DNA of 64,000 nucleotides from an uncultured Planctomycetota bacterium (GTDB taxonomy: Bacteria > Planctomycetota > Planctomycetia > Isosphaerales > Isosphaeraceae): contig CAWGMQ010000004.1 in assembly GCA_963823665.1 (NCBI GenBank), positions 2,656,001 to 2,720,000 of the forward strand. Reading direction: 5' to 3'. The notes beneath the pieces were generated by a model. That model worked only from the letters and a program-made list of their open reading frames with translations. It was not told the origin of the DNA and did no database searches. Within the stretch, counting starts at the first letter, position 1. The number at the start of each line of letters is the position of its first letter. This document shows, piece by piece, positions 34,673-59,631 of this stretch. Both the position numbers and the translations under genes were made by a program.

Positions 34673-35285
34673 TCAGTCGGCGGCTTTGGGCAGAATTGAA
34701 TCGACGGGGATCCTGCTGAATTCGACCGCATCACAGACGACGGGGAACTTCGTCGCCGGCGACGAAGTCGATACGCGAGGCATAACCAGACGGCCCTGGC
34801 TGCGTGTAGACTTCGATCTGTCGCTCGACCAGGTTGACAATCCAATAGATGGGGACGCGAGCCCTGGCATAGGCATTTCGCTTTCCGCCGCGATCGCGTT
34901 CTAGACTTGAGTCGGCGACTTCGACCACGAGAGCCAGGTCTTTGGCTTCTGGTAGGCGGTCTTGGTACAGATCCTCGGGGCCGCGCACGACTGCGATGTC
35001 GGGCTCGGGTTCGTCGAAATCTGGAATTCGGACCGGATCTTCCTTGCGACACGTCCATCGGTCTGCGGGTAAGACGTCGAGTGCTTTGAAGACTCTTCCG
35101 ACACTCCAGATGTGAGGGGGCTTCTTTGCCATTTTGTTTACCACGTAGCCGTCGATCAGCTCAACGCGGGGGTCGTCGAGAACCTGGGCCATGCGTTCGT
35201 ACTCATGCACTGTGAATCGATACAGCGACAGGGACGCTACCGGTTCAGGTGCTGGCGTCGGCTGAATTGCCGTCATAGTGGACAT
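34673..35285 (-). CDS. Uma2 family protein (C-terminal frameshift near 34742)
   Basis: Motifs YRFTVHEY, VELIDG, EPEPDI, VEVADSS and YARARVPIYWIVNL. Confidence 0.85.
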
Positions 35286-35474
35286 GGGAGGCCTCTGGCC
35301 GCACGAGTGGCGGGCCGACCAGAGTGTCGGCCCTAAAGATGCCAACCACGGAGCACCGGCAAAGCCCGTGCTACCCCTTCCGTCCATGCGTCGGGGATGC
35401 GTTCGGTCGTGTATTGCATCATAACAGATATCGTGAGCGGTCGAAACGGCAGGGGACGGGGATGAGTGAGACGG

Positions 35475-44030: not shown

Positions 44031-44876
44031 ATGATGAGCTCGGACAAACTCAACATGATGAACGGCGGCAACGGTCTGGTGTGCCCTGCGCTGCGCGAAT
44101 GGACGCCTGGCGGCCCAGTCTCCGGACTGGACGGGGATGAGATCGGTGTGTGGGTGGTGGAGCTGGACGCTGGGCTCGAGAGCCAGGCGGAGATTGACGG
44201 GGCAGAGCCGGGCCGTGAGCTTAAGGTGCTCGATGCGGAGGAGCGGGCGCGAGCGGCACGGTTTGTGCGGGCGCGGGACCGCAGGCGGTTTGCTCGTTGC
44301 CGATCGGCGTTGCGCGAGATACTGGGCGGCCTGGTTTGTGAGCAGCCGGAGGCGCTGCGGTTCCGAGCTGTGGCGCGGGGCAAACCCGAGCTGGATTTCC
44401 CCAACATCGACGGGAGAGAGCCGCCTGTTCGATTCAACGTCTCTCATTCATCCGAGCTCGCGGTGATTGCGGTCTGTCGCAGCCGGGAGCTGGGGGTTGA
44501 CGTTGAGCAGGTCAGGGCTATCGGCGAAGCCGAGCGGATCGTGGAATCCTTTTTCTCAGCGAACGAGCTGGCTGAGTTCGGCAGGATTGGCCCCGAGAAG
44601 AAAGCGATGGCGTTCCTCCGGGGGTGGACGCGCAAAGAGGCAATCCTTAAAGGGTTAGGCGTCGGAATCGCGGGACTGGCGGACCGTCATGAGACGGGAT
44701 TCGGGACTGGTGAGGTCACGGCTCGATTCTCTCCGGCGCTGCCGAACTGGCGCGTTGGGGCGTGGCAGCTCTGGGAGGCGTCTCCGCGCAGTGGCTTCGT
44801 GGCAACCGTTGCGTGCCGGGTGGATGCGATGGATGGCGATGCTGCAAGGACTGGGGGGCCGAATTCATGTGGTTAG
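44031..44876 (+). CDS. Sfp-type 4'-phosphopantetheinyl transferase
   Basis: Motifs GKPEL, FNVSHS, LGVDVE and WTRKEAILKG. Confidence 0.92.
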   Translation: MMSSDKLNMMNGGNGLVCPALREWTPGGPVSGLDGDEIGVWVVELDAGLESQAEIDGAEPGRELKVLDAEERARAARFVRARDRRRFARCRSALREILGGLVCEQPEALRFRAVARGKPELDFPNIDGREPPVRFNVSHSSELAVIAVCRSRELGVDVEQVRAIGEAERIVESFFSANELAEFGRIGPEKKAMAFLRGWTRKEAILKGLGVGIAGLADRHETGFGTGEVTARFSPALPNWRVGAWQLWEASPRSGFVATVACRVDAMDGDAARTGGPNSCG

Positions 44877-45703
44877 TGTTCCTCGGTCTTTGCGTCCTGG
44901 CGATTTATGTCGTCATCCGCCTGATGACCAATCTGAGCGCGTGGATCACGGGTGCGCGGTATCGGGCGTACCGGCAGGTTGCGGCGCGGTATCGGGGGCG
45001 TTACGAGACGCGAGGGCTCTCCGACCCGCCAACGGTCAGTTTCACGCACAACGGCGCGACGGTGAGGGTGGGCCTGGCGCCGACGATTCAGGGCCAACCG
45101 GGCCAGATTCCACGCACTCGCGTAGTCGCGCGGTTTGGCCAGGGAATTCCGTTCCGCATGGAGCTGGCGCCGGTGGCGCGACCGGCACCGCCGCAGTCGC
45201 CGCGGGCGACCCGGCCCGTGACGACGGGTGACCGGGAATTCGACAACGGGTACGTGGTCCGGGCCAACGACGTGGAGATGTCTCGCGACTTCCTGAACTC
45301 AACGATTCGCTCCACGGTGGCCGGTTTACAGCAGTTGGTTCATCGTGGTGGGATGCTGATCTCGATCAATCCAGAGCGGATGCTCGTGCAGGTGGACCGC
45401 AATCTAGGGACGAGCACGGAGCATCTTGCGTGGGTGGTCGAGCAAGCCCTGGTGCTGCACGACCGCCTGATTGAATCGGTGACGCGGCGAATGGGCGAAG
45501 GGGTGGACATCGTCGAGGAAGCCGAATCGTGGCCGGAGGATCAGGGTACGCCCACGTGCAAGGTTTGCGGCGACCCGATTGACGAAAGTGAGATCATCGT
45601 GTGTGCATCGTGTAACACTCCGCACCATCGTAACTGCTGGGAGTACAACGGTAATGCTTGCTCGATCTATGGGTGCAACGGCAAGGTCGGTGTCAGGGAG
45701 TGA
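44867..45703 (+). CDS. Membrane-anchored prokaryotic RING-finger protein (candidate E3)
   Basis: N-terminal TM MWLVFLGLCVLAIYVVI; C-terminal CKVC-x11-CASC-x3-HHRNCWEY-x4-CSIYGC (Prok-RING_1-like C4HC3). Confidence 0.75.
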   Translation: MWLVFLGLCVLAIYVVIRLMTNLSAWITGARYRAYRQVAARYRGRYETRGLSDPPTVSFTHNGATVRVGLAPTIQGQPGQIPRTRVVARFGQGIPFRMELAPVARPAPPQSPRATRPVTTGDREFDNGYVVRANDVEMSRDFLNSTIRSTVAGLQQLVHRGGMLISINPERMLVQVDRNLGTSTEHLAWVVEQALVLHDRLIESVTRRMGEGVDIVEEAESWPEDQGTPTCKVCGDPIDESEIIVCASCNTPHHRNCWEYNGNACSIYGCNGKVGVRE

Positions 45704-45738
45704 TTCTTTTGCAGCTTGAACCTATCAGGGAGCCCGAC

Positions 45739-46156
45739 ATGTCGAAAATGCGAGGAGCCCGGTGGCTGGCACCGGGTTTAGTTCTATTCGGTCTGCTGGT
45801 GGCCGGGGCGCCTTCGGCCGAGCCTTCGAAGGCCGAGGAGCGTCGGGAAAGCTCGACTTGAGGCGGCCAAAAAACAGTACGACGAAACCTGGGCGTACTA
45901 TCAGCAAGCCCGCATAGATTCCTATCAGGTTTATGTGTGGTCGCGCATCATGCTCGATTGCCGGCGGGAAATGGCGCCGAAGGCCGCCGACAGGCTGGTT
46001 GCGCTCGAGGAGCACCTGGCGCGGATGAAGAAGTTGGAGTCGCTGATTTCGCGGGTGCGCCGTCTGGGGTTTGGTCGTTCCTACGACGTAGGTGCTGCGG
46101 AATACTACCGATTGGAGGCAGAGCACTGGCTGGAGCTGGAACGTGCGCGTAAGTGA
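45739..46156 (+). CDS. Exported helical hypothetical protein (frameshift near 45845)
   Basis: Signal peptide MSKMRGARWLAPGLVLFGLLVAGA in one frame; helical domain RLEAAKKQYDETW...EAEHWLELERARK in another. Confidence 0.55.
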
Positions 46157-46325
46157 ACCGAGCAAAATCGGCGATAAGGAGTTTCGAGTTGGCGCGAAGA
46201 GCGTTATCCTGGTGGAAGGATCGCCGGACGGGTGATCTGGAGGCGAGCTGGGCTACTGAAAAGGCCGGGCTCTTCTCAATATTCAGCGGTGGCGGCCGAA
46301 GAGATGCTGAGGAGGTATACTGACC

Positions 46326-46628
46326 ATGTCATACGGCGGAACAGCCGATCCCAGCGGAATCCAGGTGACATTCCTGGACCAGACCGGCGCGAAGTCGGTC
46401 AAAGCGGTCATCGCCTTCAGCGTGCCCGTCAGCCGGATCATCCCCAATATCATTACCAAGATGAGTTTGCCCGCGACCAGTCCTGACGGGCAGCCGATGA
46501 GCTACTCCCTTGACCATAAAGAGGGTGGCCGGCGACTGCTTGAGAACTGGACGCTGGTTGAGGGGGGGGTCCAGAACGGCGACCACCTGATTGTGTATCC
46601 CGAGGTTGTAGCAGGACGGATTTGTTGA
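46326..46628 (+). CDS. Ubiquitin-like beta-grasp protein (EsaB/YukD-like) with C-terminal VVAG-RIC
   Basis: Strong GAGGAGG RBS; 'LLENWTLVEGGVQNGDHLIV' matches the ubiquitin-fold pattern L.E..TL...GV..GD.L.V; Gly97 is followed by a 3-aa tail. Confidence 0.85.
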   Translation: MSYGGTADPSGIQVTFLDQTGAKSVKAVIAFSVPVSRIIPNIITKMSLPATSPDGQPMSYSLDHKEGGRRLLENWTLVEGGVQNGDHLIVYPEVVAGRIC

Positions 46629-46752
46629 GGCCCAGCGTGGGTGCCGCGATTAGCTCGCGGCGCGCAGCAATGGTGCACGACAACTCTCGGCCCGCGCTCG
46701 ACTTCGATGCACCGGGAGGCCTCCGCAGGGGCCGAGGGGCGATCGCACGACC

Positions 46753-47610
46753 ATGTATCAATCTCCTCGCATGCGCCGCCTGCGAAACGATTTGGCGGCG
46801 CTAGAACGACTTCAATCGGAAAGCAGTGTCTTTCGCTTCAAAGCCCACGGCAAGCCGGCGCATCATTTCCTTATCCATTTAGTGGGTAAGAGTTTATACC
46901 GTTTGCGCGGCCAGGTGATGGCGCACGACGACCATCGCGTCGAGATCAAGCTCGGTGCGTCGTATCCGCGCACGATCCCGGAAATCCGCTGGATCACGCC
47001 GATCTATCACCCGAACATCTCCGAGATCGGGATGGTTTGCCTGGGTGGGTATGGAACGCACTGGGTGCCGAGCGTGCAGCTCGACGAGCTGTGCAACATG
47101 CTGTGGGACATGGCGCGGTATCACAACTACGACATCCGAAGCCCTTATAACCGAGATGCAGCGCTCTGGGTTGCGAGCCAGACGAAATTCCTGTTCCCGA
47201 CTGATCCACGACCGCTGCGAGACCTTCGGGCCGCGCTGGGCCGGGTCGAGCCAGCGATGGACGCGGCATCGGGGCCCAAGCATGCGGGGGGGGACGATCA
47301 CACGAACGGCTCGTCGAATTCGACTGCGAGTGATCCGGAGGGCGGCGAAACCACGCCGACTCGGGTTCGCCAGTTCATGAATCGCTATGGCGGCATTTTC
47401 GCCAAGAGTCCAGGCCGGCGGGGCGGTGATCAAGGCGAGCGGGCCGATGATCGAGACGAGATCACCAGGCCTGCTGCAGCGGGTTCGGCGCCGATCGCGA
47501 GCGCTGCGGCCGTGCCGCAGCGAGATGACGAAGAGATCATTCTTCTCGAGTCGGCCAGTGCGGCCGATCACAGGCGTGAGGGTGTCGACGGGATCACGTT
47601 CATCGAGTAA
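46753..47610 (+). CDS. Ubiquitin-conjugating enzyme E2 (UBC fold) with disordered acidic tail
   Basis: Helix 1 RRLRNDL; YPRTIPEIRWITPIYHPNISEIGMVCL (HPN 86-88, Cys96); SPYNRDAA. Confidence 0.9.
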   Translation: MYQSPRMRRLRNDLAALERLQSESSVFRFKAHGKPAHHFLIHLVGKSLYRLRGQVMAHDDHRVEIKLGASYPRTIPEIRWITPIYHPNISEIGMVCLGGYGTHWVPSVQLDELCNMLWDMARYHNYDIRSPYNRDAALWVASQTKFLFPTDPRPLRDLRAALGRVEPAMDAASGPKHAGGDDHTNGSSNSTASDPEGGETTPTRVRQFMNRYGGIFAKSPGRRGGDQGERADDRDEITRPAAAGSAPIASAAAVPQRDDEEIILLESASAADHRREGVDGITFIE

Positions 47611-47721
47611 CGTGAGACGCCGTGCGCCGTTGTGGGTGGATGCGATTGCGGAATTTCGCGCCGGTCACTCGCGCGACGGGGGACGGCCGGTGAATTCAAC
47701 GGGCCGCGGCGAGGAGTCGTG

Positions 47722-48984
47722 ATGGCGGACGAGCGACCCATGGAATCAACCGGTCAAGCTCCGGCTCCCGGGGCGACCGGCGCCGGGCAGGGAGCGGAAG
47801 GCAATGCCCTTGCCAGTCCCATGGTCATCGACGACCAGGACCGGTACAGCAGCCTTCGATTGATCTCGTGGTGGCGGCAGGATCGGCTGCGCTCGGCGAG
47901 CGTGCTCGTCGTCGGCGCCGGGGCTCTGGGCAATGAGGTCATGAAGAACCTGGCTCTGCTCGGATTGGGGACGATCTACCTGGTCGACTTCGATACGATT
48001 GAAGCCTCAAATCTTTCGCGATCGGTTTTATTTCGCGATTCGGACGCCGGGCGCCCCAAGGCGATGGTGGCCGCACAGCGGGCGCGCGAGCTCAATCCGG
48101 AGGTGACGATCATACCGATTCACGGTGACGTCATCGTGGACATCGGACTGGGGCTCTTTCACGACGTTGATCTGGTGATCGGCTGCCTCGACAACCGGGA
48201 AGCCCGGCTGTGGGTGAATCGCCAGTGCTGGAAAACGGGCACGCCGTGGATCGATGCGGGCATTCAGGAGATTCAAGGGGTGGTCAAGGTTTTCGTCCCG
48301 CCGGATTCGTCATGCTACGAGTGCGCGATGACCGAGCGCGATTATCAGCTTCTCAACCGCCGGTATAGCTGCCCACTACTCTCACGCGATGAGATCCTCT
48401 CGGGCAAAGTGCCGACGGCCCCGACGATCGCTTCGATGATGGCGGCGCTTCAAGTACAGGAAGCGCTCAAGCTCTTGCACGGCATGCCGGTCGCTGCGGG
48501 ATCGGCTCTTGTGTACAACGGAGTAGCGAACCAGTTCTATTCCACGCGGTTACCGTTCCGGGACGACTGCTTGAGCCACGAGACCTACCCGGCGGCGGTT
48601 GAGCTTCCGCTGGGTCAGAAGCAGACGGTGCGGGAGCTTTTCGAGGCAGTGGGGCCACGTCTTGATGGCCGGCTGCACCTGGTGCTCGAGCGGGAGCTGG
48701 TTGTGGCGATCGAATGCCCGCGATGCGATTGGCGCAGGGAGGTGATGCGGCCGCGGGTGAAGGTGAAGTCATCGGAAGCCGAGTGCCCGAGCTGCCGGGA
48801 ACCAGCACGGCCAACGTTCGAGAGCGGCATCGAGGCGGATTCACCGCTTGTTGCTTGCTCGCTTTCGCGAGTTGGAATTCCACCTTACGATATCGTGAGG
48901 GTGGACGGGGAAAGCGAGTCGGGATTCTTCCTGCTGGCCGCTGATCGGGAAGACGGCAAGACGGGCTGGGGGTCAGGCGGTTGA
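47722..48984 (+). CDS. E1-like ubiquitin-activating enzyme (ThiF/MoeB/UBA family)
   Basis: GAGGAG RBS; motifs VVGAGALGNEVMKNLALLG, DFD, SNLSR, CLDNREAR, CYEC and YSC217; extra C-terminal CPRC/CPSC. Confidence 0.92.
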   Translation: MADERPMESTGQAPAPGATGAGQGAEGNALASPMVIDDQDRYSSLRLISWWRQDRLRSASVLVVGAGALGNEVMKNLALLGLGTIYLVDFDTIEASNLSRSVLFRDSDAGRPKAMVAAQRARELNPEVTIIPIHGDVIVDIGLGLFHDVDLVIGCLDNREARLWVNRQCWKTGTPWIDAGIQEIQGVVKVFVPPDSSCYECAMTERDYQLLNRRYSCPLLSRDEILSGKVPTAPTIASMMAALQVQEALKLLHGMPVAAGSALVYNGVANQFYSTRLPFRDDCLSHETYPAAVELPLGQKQTVRELFEAVGPRLDGRLHLVLERELVVAIECPRCDWRREVMRPRVKVKSSEAECPSCREPARPTFESGIEADSPLVACSLSRVGIPPYDIVRVDGESESGFFLLAADREDGKTGWGSGG

Positions 48985-50387
48985 ACGGCGATGAAATCAC
49001 TTTCGGCGATGTGCGGGTTCGCGAGCCGGAGCGGCGCGCGCGGCCGGATCGGGACCGGCGATTTGCATCCGTTGCCTATGAAGTGCCGGGCGCGGCCGAC
49101 CTGCCGATCTTTCTCGATCGCCGCGCGGCGGACGCGATCGAACGGCACGCTCTCTCCGACACGTCGGTCGAGCTGGGTGGAATTCTGCTGGGCAAGGAAT
49201 GCCTCGACACGGCAACTGGACAGGCTTTCGTGTGGGTGAATCAGTCGCTCGAGGCCAAACACTACGCGAATACTCAGGCCAGCTTCACTTATACTCACGA
49301 TTCATGGGAAGAGATCACTCGAGAGCGCGACCAGCGGTTTCCGCAGTACGACATCGTCGGCTGGTATCACACGCATCCCAACTTCGGAATCTTTCTCTCG
49401 CACCACGATTTATTTATTCATCACAACTTTTTTTCACAGGCACTGCAAGTTGCCTACGTTGTTGACCCAATCAACCAGACTCGCGGTTTTTTCCAGTGGC
49501 GCGACGGCGGAATGGCGCAGGTGCAGGGTTACTACCTCACGGCGGATCGCGGCGATCGGATAGCACTGGCGAGGCTTGCGAACGACCTCGAGCAGCTTCC
49601 GAATGCGGAAGGCGGCTCGGGGGGAGCCTTTTCACCTCGCCTCGAAGCGGAGCTGATCAAGATGCTTACAAGAACTGGGCAGCGCGACGTCCATTCGCCG
49701 GTTGAGAGACTCCAGTTTGCCACTGTCTATGGCCTACTGGGGATTTTCCTCGGCGTGATGGGGCTGGCCACCGTGCTCTGGCTGAGCCAGCTTCTGGGCC
49801 AGATTCAGGCGATGAAGGAATCGATTCAGACTCGAGCGCGTGTGGACGAGGAATCAGCCGCGCGCGTGCGGCTGATGAGTGACGCTTTGCTGGAGCGAGC
49901 GGTCAAGGACCCTGTTGACTTCGTCGCGTTGTACGAGAAGAAGAAAAAAGAGCTAGATGACGTAGAGAAGCGAGCGGGAAGCTTAAGCACTTCAGTCGTA
50001 GAACTCGGGAGGGATCTGAAGCGCGAGCAGAAAGACAACGAGCGTCTGGTCAAGGAGCTTTCCGTTTCGAACGAGAAACTCGTGAAGGCCGAGGAGAAAG
50101 CCGCTGGAGCGGCGGAACTGAACTCGCGGGTTGTGGAGGTGGAAAAAGAGCGGGACACGCAGCAGCAGGAGCTCGCGGAGCTGAAGGAGCGGATAGACCC
50201 CGAAACCGGCCAAGTTGCTCTGGCAATGAAGCGCAAGCTGGATCGCACCCAATACATGATGTATGGGGGCTGGGCGTGCAGCGCGTTTCTCGGTGTCGCA
50301 ATCGCGGCCGCGTACTTCCTGCTCAAACCCGTTCCGAGCGTCCCCCTTGAGGATGACAAAGAGCGTCCCGCGCACCGGATCGAGTAA
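48981..50387 (+). CDS. JAB/MPN+ (JAMM) isopeptidase fused to TM-coiled coil-TM
   Basis: TTG start overlaps the E1 stop; ELGG and WYHTHP-x4-FLSHHD JAMM motif; two hydrophobic helices flank a long heptad region. Confidence 0.88.
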   Translation: MNGDEITFGDVRVREPERRARPDRDRRFASVAYEVPGAADLPIFLDRRAADAIERHALSDTSVELGGILLGKECLDTATGQAFVWVNQSLEAKHYANTQASFTYTHDSWEEITRERDQRFPQYDIVGWYHTHPNFGIFLSHHDLFIHHNFFSQALQVAYVVDPINQTRGFFQWRDGGMAQVQGYYLTADRGDRIALARLANDLEQLPNAEGGSGGAFSPRLEAELIKMLTRTGQRDVHSPVERLQFATVYGLLGIFLGVMGLATVLWLSQLLGQIQAMKESIQTRARVDEESAARVRLMSDALLERAVKDPVDFVALYEKKKKELDDVEKRAGSLSTSVVELGRDLKREQKDNERLVKELSVSNEKLVKAEEKAAGAAELNSRVVEVEKERDTQQQELAELKERIDPETGQVALAMKRKLDRTQYMMYGGWACSAFLGVAIAAAYFLLKPVPSVPLEDDKERPAHRIE

Positions 50388-50411: not shown

Positions 50412-51740
50412 ATGATGGGGGTTCGCAGAAACAATCGGTTGCTGCTGTGCTTCGTCACCCTTGCGGCCGTTCTTGTGGCGGCGGGGGCGTTCACGCTCGT
50501 TCGGGCGCAAACAGCCGCAGACGGTCAGCGCACCGCGTCTCGAGCCGGTGAAATTGAACCGGTACCCGTTCCGGAAGCGAGCGCGCGCGCTCTTGAGTTT
50601 TACTGGAGCGGAAACAGGCTCTGGATCCTGAATGTTGCCTGGGCAATGACGCTTCCGGGCTTGATGGCGTTTTCGGGTTTTTCTGCGCGGCTGCGGAACT
50701 TGGCAGCAAGGTTGGGGCGAGTGAGGTTCGTCACGCTTGGCCTGTACGTGCTGATGTATCTGGCGATCGTCTTCCTGGTCGACCTGCCGCTGTCTTACTA
50801 CGAAGGCTACGTGCGGCTGCATGCGTACGGACTTTCCAATCAGACGCTTGGCAAGTGGTTCGGCGATTCGGTCATCCGGTTGGCAATCTCGATGGTGGCG
50901 GGCGTCGCTCTGGCCTGGGTTCCTTATCTTTTGATTGCTCGCAGCCCGAAGCGCTGGTGGTTGTATACGGCGGTGCTCTCAGTACCGTTTCTGTTCGCGG
51001 TCATGTTGATCAAGCCAATCTGGATCGATCCGCTCTTCAATCGGTTTGGGCCGATGCACGACCTCGATCTCGAGCAGCAAATACTGAAACTAGCACGGAA
51101 GGCGGAAATTGCTGCGGACCGGGTGTTCGAGGTTGAAAAGAGCGTCGATACCAAGGCGGTGAACGCGTATGTGACGGGTGTGTTTGCGACAAAGAGAATC
51201 GTTCTCTGGGATACCTTGCTGGCCAAGCTGGACGCGCCGGAAGTGCTGCATGTGATGGGCCATGAAATGGGGCATTACGCCCTGGGACATGTGGTCCGTT
51301 CCATCGTTCTATCGGCCGGGCTCACGCTTGTTGGACTTTTCCTGGTTGATTGGGCGGGGCGCAAGCTGGTCGGCCGATTTGCAGGTCGACTCGGATTCGA
51401 GCGGCTTTCGGACGTTGCCTCGCTGCCGCTCGTGCTCTTGCTACTCGAAGTTGCGATGTTCGTGCTGACACCCGTTGCGCTAGCATACAGCCGACATCAG
51501 GAGCACGAGGCGGATAAGTACGCGCTCGATCTCGTTAGAGACAATCACTCGGGCGCCTTGTCGTTCGTGAAGTTGATGGAAACGAACCTCAGCAATCCGC
51601 GGCCGGGGCCAATTTACAAGTTTTTCCGCTCAAGTCACCCGAGCATCGGCGAACGAATTGACTTCTGCAACAGCTATCGGCCGCCGCGATCAAGCGAGTC
51701 TAAGCGGGGCGAAGAAGAGCCGCGTTATCGATCGAATTAA
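50412..51740 (+). CDS. M48 family (Ste24-like) membrane metalloprotease
   Basis: Motifs NAYVTG, RIVLWDTLL, HEMGH, EHEAD and SHPSIGERI; includes the N-terminal M48_N region. Confidence 0.92.
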   Translation: MMGVRRNNRLLLCFVTLAAVLVAAGAFTLVRAQTAADGQRTASRAGEIEPVPVPEASARALEFYWSGNRLWILNVAWAMTLPGLMAFSGFSARLRNLAARLGRVRFVTLGLYVLMYLAIVFLVDLPLSYYEGYVRLHAYGLSNQTLGKWFGDSVIRLAISMVAGVALAWVPYLLIARSPKRWWLYTAVLSVPFLFAVMLIKPIWIDPLFNRFGPMHDLDLEQQILKLARKAEIAADRVFEVEKSVDTKAVNAYVTGVFATKRIVLWDTLLAKLDAPEVLHVMGHEMGHYALGHVVRSIVLSAGLTLVGLFLVDWAGRKLVGRFAGRLGFERLSDVASLPLVLLLLEVAMFVLTPVALAYSRHQEHEADKYALDLVRDNHSGALSFVKLMETNLSNPRPGPIYKFFRSSHPSIGERIDFCNSYRPPRSSESKRGEEEPRYRSN

Positions 51741-58350: not shown

Positions 58351-59631
58351 CAGGGCTGTTGACTAATTGAGGATACCCAGTTTGGCGAAGAGCGTTCGGA
58401 CTTGGGAAGCATTGCGACGAACGGACTCGGCGATGTTGGTCGCGCCAGTGATTCGAAGGAATCCGATCGCTGCATTACGCAGCGCAGCCATGATTTCCGG
58501 ACCGGACCCCTTGCGGATTCGGCTCTTATCCTCGGCGAACGTGACGTCACGCACGTAGTGGGATCGATTCTCGATGGACCAGTGGCCCCGTCCCCAAGCA
58601 AGCAAATGGCTGGCGTTGCCGAGAGCGCGGGGAACGCTGGTAATGAAATAGCGAGTCTCGTTTGAAACCTCTCCGCCTTGCTCAACCACACTCTCAATCT
58701 GCCCGACCTGAGCCACGCCGGGCCAATCCAGATACTCATTCAATGCTGTCGTTGCCTTCAAGGTGCGGCGTTCACGACGACCATGGCCCTTGTCTATGCT
58801 CGTGGTCGTGTCCTGCGCCTGTTCCCAGATTCGTCGCTGTTTAGGGGGAAAAAGCCGCCTCGGTTGATGCGTCGAAGGCGGCCTTAATATCGTTGAGGAG
58901 CGTCGGCTGGTTGTCCTTCACAAACCAAAAGTAGTGGCCGCGTGCATCGATGACCTGCTGGGAAAGATCACGCTGGCAGAACATGGCGTCGCCGGTTACC
59001 ACTCGCCCCTCCAGAACGATACCTCGGAGCAACTGAAGAGCTGTCTTGTGCTCGTTGGTCTTGTTTTCGCCGCCGTTGGGGACCTGTGTCTGAGCCAACG
59101 TTAATCCCGACTCGTGCGCTACCAAGGAGAGCAGGTGGACCGCCTTCTCGAGGCCGTCGAAGCTGCCACGAGCTGTCTTGCCATCGAGAGCAAAAGCTTC
59201 CGGCGGCGAAGGCTCGCTTGAGACTGGACGGTCCAGCAACGATTCGGCCCACCGGCTCAGAGCGTCCTCGAAGGCCTTTGGGTCTAATGCGATCAGAACC
59301 TTGCGAATGCCGCCCATCTTCGGAGGTCTGCGAGTGAAGCCAAGTCGATGCATCAGCCCGATGTCTTGGTCCCGTGCCCATTGCGCAATGGCAGAATAGC
59401 TCTTCGCACCACACATGACGGCACAACACACCAACGCAAGAATGGCCGACAGCGGATGTTGTCGGCCATGCCGACTGCGAGGATCGGGAACAACGGCAAG
59501 AAAGGAAAGAAGACTGCCGGTGGTTTGGGCTTCCATGCGATGCCTCCATGCCGAAAATCCTTGGTGTGGGCGGTTTCCATACCGATAGAACCTTTCCTAT
59601 CTGCCTCAGGCTCAATCTGTCAACAGCCGTG
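58351..59631 (-). mobile_element. ISAs1-family insertion sequence, 1281 bp
   Basis: Inverted repeats CAGGGCTGTTGACTAATTGAG / CACGGCTGTTGACAGATTGAG (18 of 21 match); 10-bp direct repeat CAACATCGTG at 58341-58350 and 59632-59641. Confidence 0.93.
58363..59536 (-). CDS. ISAs1 transposase in two frames (58841-59536 and 58363 to about 58845)
   Basis: ORF1 motifs VPDPR, ALDGKTARG, TNE, VTGDAMFCQ and VKDNQP; ORF2 motifs KGHGRRERR and HWSIENRSHYVRDVTFAED. Confidence 0.9.

Follow-up and report, generated by a model that had tools for sequence, protein, structure and literature searches.

Ubiquitin-like protein (Ubl) conjugation in bacteria has so far been understood almost only through mobile anti-phage operons, namely Bil, CBASS, and Bub. 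Here, we analyze a gene cluster that encodes a Ubl together with an activating enzyme (E1), a conjugating enzyme (E2), a RING-type ligase (E3), and a JAB isopeptidase. The cluster lies in a 64,000-nucleotide (nt) stretch of DNA, hereafter the window, from an uncultured Planctomycetota bacterium of the family Isosphaeraceae (assembly GCA_963823665.1, contig CAWGMQ010000004.1, positions 2,656,001 to 2,720,000; coordinates below count from the first letter of the window). A first-pass annotation of this DNA had read it as a three-enzyme conjugation system, perhaps with a resident, membrane-linked role. The locus is real and intact. It very probably encodes a true conjugation cascade, and we lean toward a resident cascade that is tethered to the membrane and has a membrane-linked role.

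Several described systems resemble this locus in part. Bil operons are described as having no E3 (PMC11601596), which agrees with what the first-pass annotation had stated of the characterized Bil systems. The same source describes Bub operons (6E/DUF6527) as working through Ser (E2) and Tyr (E1) oxyesters with a DUF6527 protease, and as lying mostly on mobile or defense islands (PMC11601596). A cascade of Ub, E1, E2, a small RING protein, and an Rpn11-like enzyme from Caldiarchaeum subterraneum has been reconstituted in vitro (PMC5654768, PMC6043591). Related operons are reported in Actinobacteria, Planctomycetes, and Acidobacteria, an observation credited to Burroughs et al. 2011 (PMC4197634), and a second account likewise credits that work with predicting the architecture (PMC10557695). 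RING-containing “tri-ligase” Ubl systems are also described among conflict systems (PMC7159879). The architecture itself was therefore already predicted by comparative genomics in 2011, Planctomycetes included. The locus is a further member and not a new architecture, and the caution about novelty voiced in the first-pass annotation was well placed (PMC4197634, PMC10557695).

Organization of the locus

Five co-oriented genes with intact catalytic motifs had been proposed, and both Pfam searches and translation confirm them, with the motifs at the residues given below. All Pfam matches reported here exceed the curated cut-offs. The cluster and its immediate downstream neighbor are as follows, with product lengths in amino acids (aa).

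44867..45703, + strand: RING E3, membrane type, 278 aa; Pfam Prok-RING_1
45739-46156, + strand: small frameshifted gene between the RING and Ubl genes
46326..46628, + strand: Ubl precursor (predicted), 100 aa; Pfam YukD
46753..47610, + strand: E2, 285 aa; Pfam UQ_con
47722..48984 (from ATG; or from GTG 47632), + strand: E1, 420 aa from ATG; Pfam ThiF
48981..50387, + strand: JAB/JAMM isopeptidase, 468 aa; Pfam JAB and Prok-JAB
50412..51740, + strand: M48 zinc peptidase, Ste24-like, 442 aa; Pfam Peptidase_M48 and Peptidase_M48_N

The TTG start of the JAB gene overlaps the TGA stop of the E1 gene (TTGA at 48981-48984).

Distribution, synteny, and selection

An E2 query matched 22 of 24 other Isosphaeraceae genomes, the best match in each being 58-85% identical. 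Outside the family, two of 16 genomes of the class matched, at paralogue level only. A species-representative collection contained 579 stretches that encode a relative, of which we analyzed the best 80 loci; these overlap the family genomes and are not independent of them. Split by taxon and E2 identity, they comprise 61 Isosphaeraceae-type, 16 Pirellulales-type, and three other loci, and only loci with enough flanking sequence were counted for each gene.

We find that the genes co-occur in both orders; for the first-pass annotation, a lack of co-occurrence in related genomes would have counted against its reading. The Ubl gene is present in 59 of 60 Isosphaeraceae-type and 16 of 16 Pirellulales-type loci, the E1 gene in 52/56 and 14/15, and the JAB gene in 46/53 and 14/15, respectively. 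The order Ubl-E2-E1-JAB is syntenic in both types. The RING gene is found in 27 of 45 Isosphaeraceae-type loci, always upstream, and in 13 of 14 Pirellulales-type loci, always downstream of the JAB gene. Where an Isosphaeraceae-type locus had no RING gene, a full-length RING orthologue (61-68% identical) was encoded elsewhere in all five genomes checked. An M48 gene follows the JAB gene in 35 of 49 Isosphaeraceae-type loci and in none of 15 Pirellulales-type loci. This downstream M48 gene, and the upstream genes for a zinc-type dehydrogenase (ADH) and a phosphopantetheinyl transferase (PPTase), recur across several genera of the family. In a quick E1 tree, for which the careful search was unfinished, 24 Isosphaeraceae-type sequences form one clade (SH-like approximate likelihood ratio test, 99).

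Across a phylum-wide sample, 46 of 401 genomes had a Ubl match; about ten of these are at orthologue level (at least 55% identity), and the others, most of the total, are paralogue-level matches that fall into two more distant groups of Ubls. The system is retained within particular families and is patchy across the phylum. Its cultured carriers include Singulisphaera, Tautonia, Aquisphaera, Tundrisphaera, and Paludisphaera.

Sequence conservation is highest in the Ubl, which is 77-99% identical within the family and 64-76% identical between the two orders. Within-family identities of the other products are 53-90% (E2), 57-90% (E1), 36-79% (JAB), and 42-88% (RING). Compared with the copy in a same-genus genome, the ratio of nonsynonymous to synonymous substitution rates (dN/dS) is 0.026 for the Ubl, 0.09 for the E1, 0.11 for the RING protein, 0.18 for the E2, 0.20 for the JAB protein, and 0.24 for the M48 peptidase. 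Purifying selection acts on all six genes, with the tightest constraint on the Ubl.

Related sequence also appears in environmental RNA. Of the words sampled from 46200-48000, 6-12% occur in 24 soil, rhizosphere, or wetland metatranscriptome runs (21 studies). In four of four soil metatranscriptome runs (four studies), contigs that are 85-99% alike gather on the Ubl gene and, in smaller measure, on the E2 core. Single RNA contigs cross the spacer between the Ubl and E2 genes (e.g., 46568-46910, 46595-46919, and 46485-46761). These contigs are consistent with transcription of the cluster in relatives, while such contigs neither prove transcription nor rank genes. Their near absence past ~47240 is uninformative: this stretch itself guided the choice of runs, and alignment was limited to sequence with a likeness of 85% or more.

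A candidate Ubl precursor with a removable tail

The Ubl is a YukD-like beta-grasp protein (Pfam YukD, E = 7e-13, 49.6 bits; cut-off 27). Its conserved body closes with YPEVVAG at aa 91-97 (nt 46596-46616), followed by RIC (nt 46617-46625) and the stop codon. We find YPE(I/V)VAG in 73 of 79 orthologues, and five of the other six still close a conserved body with AG. The residues after AG vary, numbering mostly 0-9 and most often two. No residue follows AG in 22 orthologues (12/59 Isosphaeraceae-type, 10/13 Pirellulales-type). Two-residue tails occur in 29 of 59 Isosphaeraceae-type Ubls, the remaining short tails are unrelated, and four Isosphaeraceae-type Ubls extend 13-108 residues past AG. 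Variable tails of this kind are characteristic of ubiquitin precursors, and on this pattern the Ubl is predicted to be made as a precursor.

A processing step of this type is known for Caldiarchaeum, where the 87-aa precursor of CsUb is cut by CsRpn11 after Gly-Gly (PMC6043591). Searched against the PDB as a single sequence and as a profile, the Ubl of the window had no significant match; CsUb was the only beta-grasp protein that the profile matched, at nonsignificant E values of 0.4-0.9. Upstream of the Ubl start, GGAGG and its spacer (46305-46328 in the window, with GGILT in frame) are kept across genera (loci L017-L022 and L027), which suggests a constrained, strong translation start at the Ubl gene.

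E1 and E2 enzymes

The E2 (Pfam UQ_con, E = 3.6e-12, 46.5 bits; cut-off 27) has a UBC core at ~aa 1-170, with HPN at 86-88 and the catalytic Cys96 (nt 47038-47040). Residues H86, P87, N88, and Cys96 are invariant in 33 sequences. The PDB matches listed for the E2 are eukaryotic E2s only, the best being Ubc13/UBE2N (4e-9). A paralogue-type E2 in another family of the class (locus L028, 8132-8527, genome G032) has Tyr at the column of the catalytic Cys and keeps HPN; it may be an inactive protein resembling ubiquitin E2 variants (UEV-like).

The E1 (Pfam ThiF, E = 4.2e-60) contains GAGALG at 65-70, CYEC at 198-201, and Cys217, numbered from the ATG at 47722. Glycines 65, 67, and 70, the CxxC motif, and Cys217 are invariant in 38 sequences. 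Its structural model is confident overall (predicted local distance difference test, pLDDT, 87.2), with low confidence at ~211-230, a flexible crossover loop that holds Cys217. There is no separate cysteine domain, and in that respect the E1 is prokaryote-like. The best Foldseek matches are ThiF, at the top, and UBA3, in rows dominated by the adenylation domain, which is about equally like ThiF/MoeB and eukaryotic E1 domains. A closer kinship with eukaryotic E1s (UBA7, E = 3.6e-36) was considered and dropped, because two domains contribute to that score. When single stretches are compared, ThiF does as well, the best one reaching 87 bits against UBA7 and 97.8 bits against ThiF. The C-terminal part of the E1 is a confidently modeled alpha/beta domain of ~130 aa with a CPRC...CPSC four-Cys motif. 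The abstract of Burroughs et al. 2011 is said to describe an E1 C-terminal ubiquitin-fold domain that presents the E2.

Predicted membrane anchors of the E3 and JAB proteins

The E3 matches Pfam Prok-RING_1 (E = 6.4e-10, 39.3 bits; cut-off 29.1), and its eight zinc ligands follow the C4HC3 pattern (aa 231-270, nt 45557-45676). Four of the cysteines are invariant in 38 sequences, and three more ligands are nearly so. The AlphaFold model (pLDDT 91.8) has a hydrophobic N-terminal helix (aa 3-21), an alpha/beta domain (~aa 28-210), a short linker, and the RING. The RING superposes on the E2-binding RINGs of BIRC7, RNF4, and Ring1b (4auq, 4ap4, and 3rpg; Z ~5). The alpha/beta domain (aa 28-210) resembles mycobacterial TtfA, a trehalose-monomycolate transport factor (6t84; VIA-align Z 14.9, 161 residues aligned, root-mean-square deviation 3.8; Foldseek E = 1.4e-6). 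Next come chains of ribosome-translocon structures (7tut_4, Z 13.7; 9i78_4, Z 10.9). We take the translocon chains of 7tut, 7tm3, 9i78, and 6w6l to be CCDC47, a chain identity that is unconfirmed, and we found no literature that treats TtfA together with CCDC47. Type III secretion chaperones and YbjN proteins follow at Z 5-8.

An N-terminal anchor is present in all 34 full-length RING orthologues (29/29 Isosphaeraceae-type, 5/5 Pirellulales-type). Because the helix is followed by an arginine-rich stretch, the remainder of the E3 is likely to be cytoplasmic.

The JAB protein (Pfam JAB, E = 3.1e-9; Prok-JAB, E = 1.2e-6) has an Rpn11-like domain with the catalytic motifs Glu64 and HTHPNFGIFLSHHD (HxHx7Sx2D) at 130-143. 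Its best PDB match is the Caldiarchaeum Rpn11-like enzyme CsRpn11 (6fjv, 2.9e-7), ahead of eukaryotic Rpn11, AMSH, and CSN5. After the catalytic domain come a hydrophobic segment (248-266), ~160 aa of coiled-coil-like sequence, and a second hydrophobic segment (430-448). The pair of segments recurs in 49 of 58 orthologues (39/45 Isosphaeraceae-type, 10/13 Pirellulales-type), and the other nine have one segment at the crude threshold used. We propose that a hairpin anchors the JAB protein in the membrane, and that membrane tethering of both the E3 and the JAB protein is conserved in the two orders, a topology read from sequence.

The M48 peptidase encoded next to the JAB protein carries HEMGH at 284-288 and about six hydrophobic segments, and matches both Peptidase_M48 (E = 2.9e-36) and Peptidase_M48_N, the Ste24-type N-terminal helices (E = 6.4e-20). 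Its conserved downstream position points to a possible functional tie to the cascade.

A short motif shared by the E2 and JAB proteins

The E2 tail is variable and cannot be aligned in length or sequence, yet its C-terminal end conforms to (D/E)(I/V)(V/L/I)F(I/L)(D/E). In the window, the tail holds two hydrophobic motifs, EEIILLE at aa 260-266 and the terminal GITFIE-COOH at aa 280-285 (nt 47590-47607), and Phe283 is invariant in 33 sequences. A hydrophobic-hydrophobic-Phe-hydrophobic core lies within the last nine E2 residues at 70 of 80 loci; the misses are mostly apparently frameshifted or the most distant loci. A second, similar motif is often found 15-30 residues upstream of the terminal one.

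The JAB N-terminus bears a comparable element, (D/E)(D/E)(I/M)xF(G/D/E)(D/E) followed by a hydrophobic residue, which is DEITFGDV at aa 4-11 in the window. It is present in 60 of the 61 orthologues whose match reaches the N-terminus, among 68 JAB matches. Through these motifs, the E2 and JAB proteins probably bind a single shared partner, for which the Ubl, the E3 domain, and the E1 are candidates.

Complex prediction with the Ubl (residues 1-97) and the E2 tail (240-285) gave a score of 0.39, against 0.00 for the best of three controls. Runs agreed in at least 81% of contacts, and partner pLDDT was at least 50. Of 157 solved complexes, 116 attained the calibration mark for such scores, as did two of 215 mismatches; at scores of 0.60 or below, only 18 of the 157 did so, along with both of the passing mismatches. 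The prediction hints weakly that the E2-tail motif contacts the Ubl.

A related Ubl encoded by a phage

A related Ubl of 99 aa is encoded at 5965-6264 of L117, a phage genome of 77.7 kb that has direct terminal repeats and is complete (CheckV 100%). This protein is 75% identical to the Ubl of the window over residues 14-97, and ends in PEIVAG followed by VVI. An HNH gene and other PHROG families lie near it, and the phage record contains no UQ_con (E2) match.

Proposed mechanism and role

From the computed gene content, motifs, folds, conservation, synteny, and selection, we infer the chemical steps, topology, targets, and role as follows. The Ubl would be synthesized as a 100-aa precursor, from which the Rpn11-like JAB protein would remove the RIC tail and so expose Gly97. 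The E1 would adenylate Gly97, carry the Ubl on Cys217 of its crossover loop, and hand it to Cys96 of the UBC-type E2. The RING E3, held by its one N-terminal helix and with the TtfA-like domain as a putative interaction domain, would then steer transfer of the Ubl to protein lysines on the cytoplasmic side of the membrane, where the membrane-anchored JAB protein would reverse the mark. Sequence, structure prediction, and comparative genomics all support the three-enzyme conjugation with a JAB isopeptidase that the first-pass annotation had proposed.

We argue for an endogenous function because the Ubl-E2-E1-JAB core is retained, constrained, and syntenic in two planctomycete orders. The resident, membrane-linked role suggested earlier gains support from retention in 22 of 24 family genomes, stable flanks, the keeping of the RING gene where it is unlinked, purifying selection, the lack of any PADLOC match to the Ubl, E2, or RING protein, and the membrane anchors. 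An endogenous membrane process, such as the regulation or quality control of membrane proteins, is more likely to be the role of the system than phage defense.

Defense is nevertheless the leading contrary reading. In a Bil-type system, phage proteins, or host proteins at the time of infection, would be tagged by the Ubl and the JAB protein would restrain the process. A number of observations favor this reading or otherwise weigh against ours. The characterized bacterial Ubl operons (Bil and type II CBASS) are all described as antiviral (PMC10557695, PMC11601596). Bacterial RING-type E3s are described as rare, and their operons as uncharacterized and predicted to be antiviral (PMC10557695). 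The literature that we searched yielded no bench study of any bacterial RING-containing member. Two Isosphaeraceae genomes, with completeness of 98% and 92%, were matched by neither the E2 nor the Ubl query, which marks the system as dispensable. It is also patchy across the phylum. The phage-borne Ubl shows phage interest in the pathway; with no E2 beside it, it could be a decoy or counter-measure, and it fits both a decoy against defense and exploitation of a host pathway. In addition, the C-terminal domain of the E1 is only a candidate ubiquitin-fold domain, and the predicted contact between the E2 tail and the Ubl is weak. The source genome has no CDC48_N match, and its sole proteasome-family match is a 190-aa frame of a kind that E. 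coli and B. subtilis also match, a search for degradation partners from which we conclude nothing. Set against defense are the E2 match in 22 of the 24 family genomes, the stable flanks, and an E1 clade that agrees with the family. Across genera, Ubl identity stays at 77-99% and dN/dS at 0.03-0.07, unlike fast-evolving defense genes, and the RING gene is kept even when unlinked. PADLOC returned only generic E1 and weak JAB matches, and no defense or mobile genes adjoin the cluster. On balance, we consider Bil-type defense unlikely.

Two chemical alternatives have lower standing. By analogy with Atg8, the Ubl might be attached to a non-lysine target, such as a membrane lipid head group, with the E3 as a ligation scaffold and the JAB protein as a delipidating enzyme. 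Membrane anchoring of the E3 and the peptidase would suit such a scheme, as would the short hydrophobic motifs of the E2 and JAB proteins, which are reminiscent of the Atg8-interacting motifs in Atg3 and Atg4; a contact of the E2-tail motif with the Ubl is weakly predicted in silico. However, a RING E3 and an HPN-type E2 are hallmarks of lysine-directed transfer, the locus indicates no lipid chemistry, and the idea is drawn from analogy alone, so that we judge it highly improbable. Still harder to credit is a ThiS/MoaD-ThiF/MoeB-like pathway (sulfur carrier or cofactor) that would take the Ubl no further than a thiocarboxylate. In its favor, the E1 adenylation domain resembles ThiF/MoeB and eukaryotic E1s to about the same degree, and its top Foldseek match is ThiF. 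Yet the E2, RING, and JAB genes co-occur with the E1 gene in two orders, the ThiF/MoeB models of NCBIfam all score far under their cut-offs (e.g., 148.9 versus 275), and neither a rhodanese domain nor a neighbor such as ThiG or MoaE is present.

A broader form of the resident, membrane-tethered cascade can be sketched by analogy with endoplasmic-reticulum-associated degradation (ERAD). It would be a vertically inherited membrane Ubl pathway of the two orders for protein quality control or sorting, which would include the Ste24-like protease in Isosphaeraceae, recruit the E2 and JAB proteins through their shared motif, and be tapped by phages through a tag gene. It would act at the cytoplasmic membrane, its E3 would have a TtfA-type interaction domain, with the ribosome-translocon chains as next-best structural matches, and a hairpin with a long coiled coil would keep the JAB protein in the membrane. 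We offer this fuller picture as a speculation, and a doubtful one. Cultured carriers exist, so the question of what a non-defense bacterial ubiquitin system does can be approached at the bench, where the E3 architecture and the shared docking motif offer concrete experimental handles.

Genomic surroundings

The RING gene lies upstream of the Ubl gene, as first annotated, but one gene before it and not two. The open reading frames (ORFs) at 45658-45861 and 45935-46156 are halves of a single gene that is frameshifted near 45829 in the window. This gene is intact in a same-genus genome (L017, 8743-9159, minus strand), where it encodes 138 aa from its ATG. The product of ~138 aa has a signal-peptide-like N-terminus and appears largely helical by eye. 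The one-base shift could be an assembly error or a true pseudogene. Homologues were seen in only five of 80 loci, and we reject the reading of these ORFs as two genes; the single gene probably stands outside the system.

Upstream of the cluster lie genes for the ADH, a small membrane protein, and the PPTase, and downstream, the M48 gene is followed by DinB. Genes farther away are mostly housekeeping (DnaG, sigma-70, thioredoxins, TrpF, RNase III, and RpiA). The nearest mobile-type genes encode a Uma2-family putative endonuclease (34731-35387, minus strand), 9.5 kb upstream of the cluster, and a DDE transposase (DDE_Tnp_1 and an associated domain; 58841-59536, minus strand), 8.5 kb downstream. 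Neither adjoins the cluster; they qualify the earlier description of its surroundings as housekeeping genes.

In the source assembly, 12 contigs total 16.46 Mb, with completeness of 91.9% and contamination of 3.5%. The same-genus genome measures ~16.1 Mb, and the other family genomes compared range from 3.9 to 14.3 Mb. The source genome also contains a second, paralogous Ubl system ~228 kb upstream, outside the window (contig C4:2466000-2484000, locus L016). Its YukD-like Ubl is fused after AGG to a zinc ribbon and a DUF4190 membrane tail, and its E2 bears a C-terminal zinc ribbon. Other parts are an E1 (41% identical), a short JAB protein, an FHA protein, DUF2752, and two Prok-RING_1 proteins, one of which is fused to DUF4190 and a trypsin-like protease.

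Comparison with described systems

The locus shares Ubl, E1, and E2 homologues with Bub. Whereas Bub relies on Ser and Tyr, Cys96 and Cys217 are invariant here, and DUF6527 (PF20137) has no match in the source genome, which is 91.9% complete. In type II CBASS (Cap2/Cap3), a fused E1-E2 protein is encoded next to a cGAS/DncV-like nucleotidyltransferase (CD-NTase) and an effector; here the E1 and E2 are separate genes, and the E1-E2 models of PADLOC match at the E1 domain only. No CD-NTase was found among the Pfam matches of the ORFs scanned across 28-64 kb.

Bil (BilABCD) has a Ubl, E1, E2, and JAB protein in common with the locus, and thioester chemistry is expected in both. Unlike Bil, the locus includes a RING E3. 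Its flanks are stable, and the BilA/BilB/BilC combination is not found here. PADLOC matched the E1 only generically (best 2.4e-18; BilD 1.8e-11) and the JAB domain weakly and generically, with no match to the Ubl, E2, RING, or M48 protein. No NCBIfam model reached its cut-off, and none provided a specific family for the Ubl, E2, RING, or M48 protein.

Eukaryotic membrane RING E3s of the ERAD type present what may be a functional analogy, in that an anchored RING E3 would work with a soluble E2 bearing a docking element. There is no homology to them beyond the RING and UBC domains, and the source genome has neither a Cdc48 N-domain nor an evident proteasome.

Five equivalent components are clustered both in Caldiarchaeum and here, the precursor Ubl there is trimmed by a JAMM enzyme, and the JAB protein here best matches CsRpn11. 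In contrast to Caldiarchaeum, the locus is bacterial, its YukD-like Ubl ends in Ala-Gly rather than Gly-Gly, its E2 is extended by a long tail that ends in a motif, and its RING and JAB proteins are much larger and, by prediction, membrane-anchored.

The locus belongs with the neighborhoods of the type described by Burroughs et al. 2011, which have the same YukD-like Ubl, ThiF-type E1, HPN E2, Prok-RING_1 E3, and JAB protein. The abstract of that study (Burroughs, Iyer, and Aravind, Mol Biosyst 2011) reportedly puts forward the conjugation of YukD-like Ubls by systems of this sort. Six features of this type, which is also that of Caldiarchaeum, are present here: a Ubl with a glycine end, the E1, the E2, the RING, the JAMM motif, and the co-occurrence of their genes. 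The C-terminal domain of the E1 is a candidate for the E2-presenting domain, and an ATP-dependent thioester relay with isopeptide conjugates is predicted. To this type, our analysis adds several features, some of which the 2011 paper may already describe: the retention and constraint of the system within a family, the variable Ubl tails, the TtfA-like domain of the E3, the putative JAB hairpin, the motif shared by the E2 and JAB proteins, the M48 neighbor, and the phage-borne tag.

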